From positions 1-34,760 of IMG/VR virus record IMGVR_UViG_2600255154_000001: a stretch of DNA of 34,760 nt; one strand, 5' to 3'. Of this stretch, positions 12,251 through 29,182 are shown piece after piece. Under the pieces are notes generated by a model. That model did not search any database, was not told the DNA's origin, and saw nothing but the letters and a program-made list of their open reading frames with translations. The position numbers were made by a program, and so were the translations under genes. The DNA is from a virus. Numbering within the stretch: the first letter of the stretch is position 1; each line of letters begins with the position of its first letter.

Positions 12251-12649
12251 ATGTCGGACGAACTCACCATCCAAGAGCTCGAGGAACAGGATTGGGATGT
12301 GGGTGGCGACTCGCAGTCGGATATCACCCACGAGTTTATGAATGGGAACGAGGTGACGTTCCGCGTTCAGGACCCCGAATCGGACGACATAATGGAATTC
12401 GTGTCGCCGGCGCCGGATGATGCGGATCATTCGGAAGAGCTGTTCTCGTTCGTCAGCAAGGCCATCATCGCCCCGGAGATCACGATGGAGAAGTGGCGCG
12501 ATATGCGGATCGCCGACCGCATCATCCTGGCTGACAAGGTCGGCAAAGAGGTCGGGGTCGACCGGATTATGGGTTTTTCCGACGGTGGGCTCGAAGCCCA
12601 ACTGGAAGAACTACTATCCGAATCGCAAGAGAGTGGCGACTCCCAATAG
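12251..12649 (+). CDS. Tail assembly chaperone (short, lambda G-like form)
   Basis: Acidic 132 aa ORF from ATG 12251, between tube and tape measure genes. Confidence 0.8.
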   Translation: MSDELTIQELEEQDWDVGGDSQSDITHEFMNGNEVTFRVQDPESDDIMEFVSPAPDDADHSEELFSFVSKAIIAPEITMEKWRDMRIADRIILADKVGKEVGVDRIMGFSDGGLEAQLEELLSESQESGDSQ

Positions 12650-12819
12650 AGGAGGTCGACGCCTGGCCCTGGGCTAAGAAGCTGTTCTACGCCGAGTGTC
12701 TGGCCGCGACCGACCGCGACGTCGACGAGGACCAGTTCGATATGGACATCGAGAACCTGGTCGACCAGATGCAAAACGCGTCAGAAACTCCCTCGAACCC
12801 GCAGCAGTGGTCTCCGTGA
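12251..12819 (+). CDS. Tail assembly chaperone, -1 frameshift-extended (GT-like) form
   Basis: In-frame slippery G GGT TTT at 12571-12577, hairpin at 12586-12600, -1 frame open to TGA 12817-12819. Confidence 0.8.
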
Positions 12820-27133: not shown

Positions 27134-27364
27134 CTACGGTTCTGGGTGATCGTACTTATCGTACGCGTACTTCCTCTTCCGGATCACCCAGTACTTCGAG
27201 TCCGTTTCGAGGATGAGGTCCCGCTCGAGCGCTGTCTCGAGTAGTTCCTGTGTCCGATCCGGAGCGATCTCCTCTTCATTTACGACGTCCGCAAGGTCGT
27301 CAGCTGTTCGCCCAGGATGTTCGGCGACCAGCTCCACGATCGCGTCGACGTCGTCACTCGGCAT
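27134..27364 (-). CDS. Small winged-helix-like protein B
   Basis: MPSDDVDAIVEL...LILETDSKYWV; overlaps the end of the upstream paralogue. Confidence 0.75.
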   Translation of the reverse strand: MPSDDVDAIVELVAEHPGRTADDLADVVNEEEIAPDRTQELLETALERDLILETDSKYWVIRKRKYAYDKYDHPEP

Positions 27365-27584
27365 CGTCAACGTCCTCGGCTACCCAGTACTTCCCATCCC
27401 GTTCGATGACCTCACCCTCGGCGACGAGTTCCGCGAGGACGTCCTCGACCTGTGCGCCGTCGTAGTTCGCGTGCGTCGCGATCACGCCGATCGACGTCAC
27501 CGGCGACCCGCGGTTGTGCTTGACGACGCTCCGAACGAACTCCTTCGGCGGACGCCCACGAGAACGGCGTGACTTCTCAGACAT
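27354..27584 (-). CDS. Small winged-helix-like protein A
   Basis: MSEKSRRSRGRPPKEF...EVIERDGKYWV; start refined to ATG 27584. Confidence 0.75.
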   Translation of the reverse strand: MSEKSRRSRGRPPKEFVRSVVKHNRGSPVTSIGVIATHANYDGAQVEDVLAELVAEGEVIERDGKYWVAEDVDDAE

Positions 27585-27817
27585 ACGCGGTTGTTCGTGA
27601 TTCCCGTGGATAGGTCTTCGTGACGTCGACATCGATGTCGCGAGGAGAGACGCAGCCGGCCGAACTCGGTGGGTGGTGTGGGTGGTGAGTGTGATGATGT
27701 GGGAATCACCGGCCGGCCGCGACTTGTGATCGTCTGCAGGGTGAAATAATGGCTTCGGATCGGGCGATGGATCTACTCTCCACTGATACGGTTGCGTAAT
27801 TCTATCTGACTGTGAAC

Positions 27818-28840
27818 CTATTCGAAAGACTCTACTAGATAATCAAGTGCGCTATGCGCATCAAGCTTGTAGTAGGTATCGTCGTCGATCGGTGCTGACG
27901 TTCTTCGTATTGCAGTCTGTATTGCTTCTGGGGGCGTCTGCCCACCTAGTTCGTCCGACTCCGAGAGAATAGTTGCTACAATACCGGTGATTATCGGGGC
28001 AGAATAACTCGTCCCTGCATTAAGAGTCACACCATCCTCGAGCCCAGCTACGTAGAGAGCGGGTGCAATCACATCCGGGGTTGCGTTATGGAATAGAACA
28101 TTCCCATCCCAGAGCTCCTCTCTCCGGTACTCGCTACAGCTGACACCATCACAACAGTCAAGTTGACCACAAAACGGCCCATATACTGTGCCATCCTCTT
28201 CTGGACACCACCACTGCCCAGAGTCCTCGCTGTCGACGAGATCGTGTGAGCAATGCGGAATATAACCTCCAACACTAATCACGGATTCAACCACACCTGG
28301 GCAGTGAACGCCTTCACGATCCGCTTGAGGCTGTTTGTTTCCTGTAACAGACACAATCGTTGTTTCATATTCCGCGATAACGCGTTTTGTTTCCCTCGCG
28401 AGCGAGCAGAACCCCTGGCACTCGTGTCGTATCCCGAGAGATAAATTGAGCATATCGACATCACCAGCCCCAGCGTCGGCAATCGCGTCTGCCACAGCGC
28501 TTCGGTTTCCATGTGCCTGGGTCTGATCGTCACCAGGTTCGTCGATTACCTGAAACGTACTAAATGTCGCTTCAGGCGCGAGTGTTGATAGTAGATGGAG
28601 GACATTGGATCCATGACCGCAGACGTCTGCCTCCTCTGCCGTCGTGTACGAGTCATAAACCGTATCTAGATCTATCTGTGTTCGGAGCGACGATGGTGGT
28701 GTGGAAACCGAGTCGACAACACCGATGTGGATACCCGAACCTCCGTTTCTCAAATCCGAGGCATTCAGCGATTTAACATACGAGGCGTAGACGAACGAGA
28801 GATACTCCCCTACATCACTGAACCGGGACGGGATTCCAAA
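27818..28840 (-). CDS. S8 (subtilisin-like) serine protease catalytic domain, reached by -1 frameshift or a broken gene
   Basis: Triad motifs GVVDS, GHGSNV and GTSYSAP, oxyanion TGN; frame open upstream to 28903 without an ATG. Confidence 0.88.
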   Translation of the reverse strand, partial: FGIPSRFSDVGEYLSFVYASYVKSLNASDLRNGGSGIHIGVVDSVSTPPSSLRTQIDLDTVYDSYTTAEEADVCGHGSNVLHLLSTLAPEATFSTFQVIDEPGDDQTQAHGNRSAVADAIADAGAGDVDMLNLSLGIRHECQGFCSLARETKRVIAEYETTIVSVTGNKQPQADREGVHCPGVVESVISVGGYIPHCSHDLVDSEDSGQWWCPEEDGTVYGPFCGQLDCCDGVSCSEYRREELWDGNVLFHNATPDVIAPALYVAGLEDGVTLNAGTSYSAPIITGIVATILSESDELGGQTPPEAIQTAIRRTSAPIDDDTYYKLDAHSALDYLVESFE

Positions 28841-29109
28841 TTTCGGGTCTCCTCCACAACGACGTCGTCGGAGTCGAGTTCCACAGACACAACCGTATCC
28901 AGGTTACAGATCGAATCAACGATTCGTTCGGGCGCCTCAACGCGGAGTGAAACATCGCCGATCTCCGTAACGGTGTCCGCTCCGAGACCATCAATCTCGG
29001 CTGCAACCTCATCGCGCCCTCCGTCAATGCAACTCACGAGCAGTGCGACGCTCTCGTCGCTGGAACTGCCGCGCAAGTCGCGGACTGCGGGCTCGATGAA
29101 TTCAGGCAT
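28810..29109 (-). CDS. Propeptide / inhibitor-like protein (99 aa), N-terminal part of the S8 protease
   Basis: Acidic alpha/beta pattern ending in TVVSVELD, like I9-type subtilase prodomains; own TATA (TTTAAT) about 25 nt upstream. Confidence 0.7.
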   Translation of the reverse strand: MPEFIEPAVRDLRGSSSDESVALLVSCIDGGRDEVAAEIDGLGADTVTEIGDVSLRVEAPERIVDSICNLDTVVSVELDSDDVVVEETRNLESRPGSVM

Positions 29110-29182
29110 AGTACACCCTATCACCCGAGGGTGCATTAAATGTAGGTGATCGTACCAAAAACCCGATCAAAATCGAACTCAG

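Follow-up and report, generated by a model that had tools for sequence, protein, structure and literature searches.

How is a subtilase made when the conserved N-terminus of its reading frame has no start codon of its own? The question arises from two overlapping open reading frames (ORFs) on the minus strand of the haloarchaeal provirus record IMGVR_UViG_2600255154_000001 in IMG/VR, of which positions 1 to 34,760, a stretch of 34,760 nucleotides (nt), are referred to here as the window. In the 2.89-Mb chromosome deposited at NCBI (CP048032.1) these ORFs are annotated as separate genes, encoding a propeptide-like protein of 99 amino acids (aa; ORF1) and a subtilase of peptidase family S8 of 311 aa. 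A first-pass annotation had proposed that a −1 frameshift joins the propeptide- or inhibitor-like ORF to the S8 domain, and comparative evidence supports this proposal. We consider it probable that a conserved programmed −1 ribosomal frameshift joins ORF1 to the subtilase at the pro/mature junction, because the slip site is conserved, the conserved protease N-terminus lacks a start, both parts are recognisable by homology and by modelled fold, and natural fusions of the two occur. Conserved programmed frameshifts are rare in archaea, and on sequence grounds the locus is a strong candidate for one.

The elements of the locus are as follows.

28810..29109, minus strand: ORF1 (0 frame), propeptide/inhibitor-like, PF26036 Peptidase_inhib_put, from ATG 29109 to TAG 28812-28810, 99 aa
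28837..28843, minus strand: putative slippery heptamer A_AAT_TTG, 0-frame codons AAT TTG, −1-frame codons AAA TTT
28810..28903, minus strand: overlap zone in which the ORF1 frame and the S8 (−1) frame are both open (ORF list)
27818..28840, minus strand: S8 subtilase coding sequence, −1 frame, from the slip site to TAG, 340 codons (Pfam, AlphaFold2 (AF2) model, structural alignment)
28754..28840, minus strand: conserved S8 N-terminal segment, 29 codons, FGIPSRF..., helix 10-24 (N-terminus hidden Markov model (HMM), AF2 model)
28751..28753, minus strand: TTG, first ATG/GTG/TTG of the S8 frame and NCBI-annotated start of the 311-aa product (ORF list, annotation)
28712..28714, minus strand: catalytic Asp codon GAC, D43 of the 340-aa frame (invariant alignment column)
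28613..28615, minus strand: catalytic His codon CAT, H76 (alignment and sequence)
28007..28009, minus strand: catalytic Ser codon AGT, S278, in GTS (alignment and sequence)

A slippery heptamer in the overlap of the two frames

Around the putative slip site the ORF1 frame reads ACC CGA AAT TTG GAA, an exact X_XXY_YYZ heptamer in the upstream frame at the position first described (28843-28837), although its TTG is the ninth codon before the ORF1 stop, with eight sense codons between, and not the tenth as had been stated. Relative to ORF1, S8 is read in the −1 frame, which is open from 28903 to its stop at 27820-27818; this frame crosses the heptamer without an ATG of its own, as claimed, and its first ATG/GTG/TTG is TTG 28753, 29 codons past the slip site. 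The segment at 28754..28840 therefore has no start codon and is lost when translation begins at that TTG. A −1 slip at the heptamer is predicted to yield a product of 430 aa (90 + 1 + 339 codons), in agreement with the length given in the first-pass annotation. The residue at the junction would be Leu (..TRN-L-GIPSRF..) under the standard tandem slip, and Phe only if the P-site tRNA slipped alone.

Conservation of the slip site

Eleven loci of this type, the window among them, were read as DNA from independent assemblies (NCBI genomes and Logan, JGI and ENA contigs). A PF26036-type ORF precedes and overlaps the S8 frame in all 11, with S8 always in the −1 frame, and a perfect heptamer is present in the upstream frame, 42–45 codons before the catalytic Asp, in all except L004. 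Conservation of the two-ORF layout, the −1 phase and the heptamer had been put forward as the check on the proposed frameshift, and they are found in 11, 11 and 10 of the 11 loci, respectively. Two types of heptamer occupy the same position in loci spread over the family tree, A_AAT_TTN in three loci and G_GGA_AAY in seven:

A_AAT_TTG: window
A_AAT_TTC: L019
A_AAT_TTT: L006
G_GGA_AAT: L020
G_GGA_AAC: L003, L005, L022, L023, L024, L025

The background of in-frame heptamers in the rest of ORF1 and S8 in ten loci is 0.2% per codon (9 in 4435 codons), so that their occurrence at one aligned position in 10 of 11 loci is beyond chance. Only one other in-frame heptamer was found when ten 75-codon junction zones were scanned, at a site where the −1 frame is closed. 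On the upstream side, a stop in the −1 frame abuts the heptamer in L022 and L025 and precedes it by two codons in L023 and by seven in L019; on the downstream side, the 0-frame stop follows the heptamer immediately in L003, L024 and L025 (GGGAAAC TGA/TAA) and comes 1 to 10 codons later elsewhere. The protease-frame residues that the heptamer encodes (G-K or K-F) are unconserved in relatives that have their own start or are fused, indicating that the conservation lies at the nucleotide level, which points to selection on nucleotides. A slip made by RNA polymerase would have the same outcome as one made by the ribosome and is indistinguishable from it by sequence alone; known transcriptional slippage, however, requires longer homopolymer runs than the runs of three found here (AAA TTT or GGG AAA), and the frame-specific X_XXY_YYZ pattern fits tRNA re-pairing, which makes the transcriptional route extremely improbable.

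The start-less N-terminus of the protease

The downstream frame matches Pfam Peptidase_S8 (PF00082) with an E-value of 8e-13 (48.8 bits against a gathering cut-off of 21.8), and in the family alignment D43, H76 and S278 are invariant and the oxyanion residue N168 nearly so. An exhaustive phmmer search with the 340-aa −1 frame from the slip site as query retrieved 291 relatives, nearly all of 280–360 aa. Many of these align with query residues 1–30, upstream of TTG 28753, and share the motif F-x-(I/L)-P-x-R-F...E-L...F..Y; the annotated TTG start consequently removes conserved sequence. An HMM of this N-terminus, built from 31 relatives whose own start lies at the junction, matched the start-less −1-frame segment in seven of nine loci (E-values 8e-5 to 0.04; 6e-4 for the window), while no match to the other frames of the nine loci was better than an E-value of 2.

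Structure prediction places the same segment within the enzyme. For the 340-aa frame, AF2 returned a model with a mean predicted local distance difference test (pLDDT) score of 93.6; its residues 1–30 score 96–98 and include an integral 15-residue helix, and the model aligns to subtilisins BPN', Carlsberg and E with Z-scores of 30–31 and a root-mean-square deviation (rmsd) of 2.4–2.7 Å over about 250 residues. Residue 1 of the mature subtilisins aligns to model residue 10–12, whereas the alignment of unprocessed pro-subtilisin E begins at model residue 1, so that the slip site corresponds to the classical pro/mature junction. Roughly the first 19 residues of mature subtilisin would have no counterpart in a protein started at the TTG.

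These observations bear directly on the simplest alternative, in which the locus consists of two ordinary genes, the protease is translated alone from TTG 28753 as a 311-aa protein and the heptamer is incidental. Although no canonical start precedes this TTG in the frame and NCBI annotates it as the start, and although a GTG occupies the equivalent place in the closest homologue and a TTAAAT lies about 20 nt upstream, a start here would delete 29 conserved residues, comprising an integral helix modelled with high confidence and the mature N-terminus. Relative to the catalytic Asp, the first canonical S8 start is found at −13 codons in the window, −14 in L019 and −21 in L024, but one codon before the Asp in L023 and two codons after it in L022, and the last two loci therefore have no independent standard-codon start that would yield an active enzyme. 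Separate genes are really used in one clade of the family, yet relatives with their own start all begin at −41 to −45 codons and not at −13, and conservation of the heptamer is left unexplained by separate genes. Independent translation from TTG 28753, named at the outset as an outcome that would speak against a frameshift, is thus disfavoured, and we regard the two-gene account of the window as very unlikely.

Two further features of the protease were observed. The deposited or predicted proteins of L022 (GCA_019599505.1, RKLT01000025.1) and L023, P0005 and P0006, begin at or after the catalytic Asp, their starts being truncated because the gene callers needed a start codon; public annotations of this subtilase family are systematically truncated. 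In addition, seven cysteines are conserved in the family, at positions 141, 145, 180, 197, 224, 229 and 235 of the 340-aa frame, four of which sit in an insertion of the form C-x26-C-G-Q-x-x-C-x5-C, which suggests a metal site or a disulfide cluster, unusual for a cytoplasmic subtilase.

ORF1 resembles subtilisin propeptides

A precomputed match to PF26036 is recorded for ORF1 and eight of its homologues. Fourteen ORF1 homologues align without large gaps and share the secondary-structure pattern beta-alpha-beta-beta-alpha-beta, and in this alignment the ORF1 proteins of the loci with separate genes end at the position that matches the slip site of the other loci. The AF2 model of ORF1 (pLDDT 79) has a beta-alpha-beta x2 topology with a disordered tail past residue 80, and in Foldseek comparisons it superposes on the propeptides of Tk-subtilisin, subtilisin E and CspB with an rmsd of 1.6–1.8 Å over 60–66 residues. 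The Tk-subtilisin propeptide (2z58_B) matches with an rmsd of 1.6 Å and a target template modelling (TM) score of 0.79, and Tk-SP is also among the low-rmsd matches; the prodomains of PC1/3 and PCSK9 match less closely (rmsd 3.1–5.3 Å). The Foldseek E-values for the propeptide matches are weak (0.017–0.09) because this fold is common. As modelled, a beta-alpha-beta-beta-alpha-beta propeptide fold would thus lie directly N-terminal to the catalytic domain.

A TATA-like box precedes ORF1:

29135..29140, minus strand: TTTAAT, 26–31 nt 5' of the ORF1 ATG (sequence reading)

The spacing rule for leaderless haloarchaeal mRNAs is the basis for reading this box as a promoter element, and its position suggests a leaderless transcript beginning at or near ATG 29109. 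An alternative ATG at 29136, which would give a 108-aa ORF, falls within the box, and the spacing of the box and the position of this ATG inside it together argue against the longer ORF.

Alternative layouts and the family tree

The prodomain and protease are not always arranged as in the window. Five loci (L008, L015, L016, L017 and L021) carry them as ordinary separate genes, with junctions formed by GTGA or TAGTG overlaps, by a 13-nt overlap with a GTG start or by a 15-nt spacer before the protease ATG, and in these loci S8 starts at −41 to −45 codons from the Asp, the same place as the slip site elsewhere. This arrangement indicates that the prodomain is able to work in trans and, since one clade uses two coupled genes, that the frameshift is dispensable for the module. 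A variant was observed in metagenome Ga0207813_100264 (L017:1222-1500), where the prodomain and protease ORFs are in the same frame with a single TAG between them (..MEVQT*SAVLPNW..) and a GTG two codons later; it is possibly a stop-codon readthrough version of the module, or merely a case of tight coupling. At the other extreme, two relatives only, P0025 (449 aa) and P0052 (446 aa), carry an ORF1-like domain of about 90 aa in frame at their N-terminus, and both share the domain order prodomain to S8.

A quick maximum-likelihood tree groups the two-gene loci in a single clade (support 82) and puts the two fusions in different places; loci of the frameshift type occur throughout most of it, with branch lengths of about one substitution per site, so that the slip site would be either old and maintained or repeatedly arisen. 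The called starts of 150 representatives, a rough proxy for the frequency of the layouts, lie at the junction in 25 cases, give a fused-size protein in 2, fall 30 residues or fewer before the Asp in 44, and are located after the Asp or belong to fragments in 76. Homologues are therefore not mostly continuous ORFs, the pattern that had been named as pointing to a pseudogene or a sequencing error. Under that explanation, a once-continuous pro-subtilase gene was split by a 1-nt indel, in the genome or during assembly, an idea to which the existence of two fused homologues and the occurrence of the exact window sequence in one assembly only lend something. With the same split in 11 independent assemblies at 25–45% protein identity, and with both ORFs intact and the catalytic residues invariant, its probability is close to negligible.

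Stimulatory elements and points against a frameshift

Several observations weigh against a programmed frameshift. The loci were picked from the best sequence matches and are no random sample, and the family tree is quick and weakly supported. One of the eleven loci, L004, has GGA_GAT_TTT in place of a perfect heptamer. The −1 phase is by itself no evidence, since a 4-nt GTGA/ATGA coupling overlap, as in L015, gives the same phase. Heptamers ending in G, as in the window, are listed as disfavoured (PMC8211752). No stimulatory element was found, whether a 3' hairpin or pseudoknot 5–9 nt downstream or a conserved Shine–Dalgarno-like sequence upstream: in nine loci the 70 nt 3' of the heptamer fold no better than shuffled sequences (z-scores −1.0 to +1.1), and RNAalifold gave no consensus pairs downstream of the heptamer and hence no predicted 3' hairpin or pseudoknot. 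The first-pass annotation had pointed to a GGAGG upstream of the heptamer:

28851..28855, minus strand: GGAGG, exactly 7 nt before the heptamer (sequence reading; unconserved in homologous loci)

The motif is present as described (28855-28851) but is missing in most of the homologous loci, and it was ruled out as a conserved upstream stimulator. The 0-frame stop right after the heptamer could act as a stimulator in L003, L024 and L025, though not in the window.

A GTG lies 7–9 codons upstream in L004, L006 and L020 and is a possible independent protease start. It leads to a further explanation without a slip, namely that translation of the protease begins close to the junction on a non-canonical codon, or through termination–reinitiation after ORF1. 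Genes of the two-gene clade are as a rule coupled by overlapping stop and start codons (GTGA, TAGTG), and the three loci with a GTG just upstream of the junction could be read in the same way; on the other hand, no ATG, GTG or TTG is found near the junction in the window, L019, L003, L005, L022, L023, L024 or L025, and in L022 and L025 the −1-frame stop abutting the heptamer leaves only GGG and AAA codons as starts. As reinitiation after TAG 28810 in the window could use TTG 28753 alone, we consider this explanation highly improbable.

A proposed model of recoding at the locus

The slipping itself, its efficiency, autoprocessing, inhibition and the role in the provirus are what we infer in the following model. 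The two ORFs would constitute one recoded gene, translated from ATG 29109 on a leaderless mRNA. Most ribosomes would probably stop at TAG 28810 and release the 99-aa propeptide-like protein, with a predicted ferredoxin-like beta-alpha-beta x2 fold comparable to that of subtilisin I9 propeptides, while some would slip one base back at A_AAT_TTG (28843-28837) and go on in the −1 frame. The slip would yield a pro-subtilase of 430 aa, its propeptide and catalytic domains meeting at the classical pro/mature junction. If this prodomain behaves as those of pro-subtilisins do, it may aid folding of the catalytic domain, then be cleaved and stay bound as an inhibitor, and excess free ORF1 product would serve as extra inhibitor in trans, holding a cytoplasmic protease latent.

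A more far-reaching version, which we rate as doubtful, is that the frameshift acts as a ratio device on one leaderless mRNA, a large excess of free prodomain keeping the cytoplasmic subtilase latent until superinfection, prophage induction or the like altered translation or the stability of the prodomain, and so providing a one-gene switch of the toxin–antitoxin or abortive-infection type in haloarchaeal proviruses and chromosomes.

The surroundings of the module were also examined. PADLOC run on the window returned only generic subtilase matches for the protease and no defence family. Neighbouring genes are unconserved between loci, the 741-aa neighbour in the window not being homologous to the 740-aa neighbour in L004. 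Word searches for close homologues of the S8 frame and ORF1 returned only the window's own proteins, single-protein searches for related loci in genome contigs and viral contigs found none, and isolated phage and virus genomes gave no match. Just downstream of the protease (27134-27632, minus strand) are two small overlapping ORFs of 92 and 78 aa, both ending in a similar '..D(G/S)KYWV..' motif and resembling paralogous small winged-helix-type proteins; one of them has a weak PADLOC match to PsyrT (E-value 0.0017).

Comparison with known systems

The only experimentally shown archaeal −1 programmed frameshift is that of the fucA1 alpha-L-fucosidase of Saccharolobus (Sulfolobus) solfataricus (PMC1616953; PMC8211752), and halovirus tail chaperones and the methanococcal Mg-chelatase are predicted archaeal cases (PMC8211752). 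Like the subtilase locus as proposed here, fucA1 is an archaeal gene in two overlapping ORFs, with a heptamer in the overlap that joins them by a −1 slip into one enzyme. Only a few strains have a split fucA1, most of its homologues being full length (PMC8211752), whereas the subtilase split and its slip site have persisted throughout a deeply diverged family. The subtilase is also split at a domain boundary, and its 0-frame product is itself a plausible functional protein.

In the G/GT tail assembly chaperones of tailed phages and haloarchaeal tailed viruses, an X_XXY_YYZ site likewise gives two products with a common N-terminus, one short and one long, in a fixed ratio. The proteins and their role in virion assembly are unrelated to those considered here, where the longer product would be an enzyme and the shorter one its putative chaperone or inhibitor. 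The same provirus carries a tail assembly chaperone ORF with an in-frame G_GGT_TTT at 12571-12577 (plus strand), where the −1 frame is open over 12535-12819; a hairpin (TGGGCT-CGA-AGCCCA) lies 8 nt after the heptamer, and the −1 extension past it amounts to 82 codons, ending just before a 1006-aa tape-measure gene. From its sequence this looks like a classical −1 frameshift of the G/GT type, and its presence in this provirus counts in favour of a −1 frameshift in the protease gene.

Among retroviruses, the gag-pro and pro-pol −1 frameshifts, for example at A_AAU_UUA in Rous sarcoma virus, use the same AAAUUUN type of heptamer and make the protease only as a minority transframe product; in these systems, unlike the present one, the protease is aspartic, the ribosomes are eukaryotic, a strong 3' pseudoknot or hairpin is present and there is no inhibitor logic.

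The protein parts find their closest parallel in the classical pro-subtilisins (subtilisin E/BPN', Tk-subtilisin and Tk-SP), in which an I9 propeptide acts as intramolecular chaperone and inhibitor. Domain order, both folds and the D/H/S triad with its oxyanion Asn are alike, and the slip junction lies about 10 residues before the mature N-terminus. The classical enzymes, however, are single continuous ORFs and usually secreted, whereas here different frames (or, in one clade, separate genes) encode the propeptide and the mature part, a signal peptide is not evident and the seven conserved cysteines lie in the catalytic domain.

A full-text literature search returned no paper on a subtilase or propeptide frameshift, nor on PF26036, and the arrangement therefore appears to be undescribed, as the first-pass annotation had likewise supposed. 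We know of no earlier case of a protease being separated by recoding from its own propeptide or inhibitor.

Implications

If true, the module would represent a deeply conserved, non-structural archaeal −1 frameshift that operates with two interchangeable slip sequences and no obvious RNA stimulator. Current annotations of these genes are wrong, several deposited protein models beginning at or after the catalytic Asp. With the two-gene clade and the in-frame fusions as natural controls within the same family, and being amenable to testing in Haloferax volcanii, it would offer a good system for studying how archaeal ribosomes frameshift, and it would bear on how intracellular subtilases stay silent.

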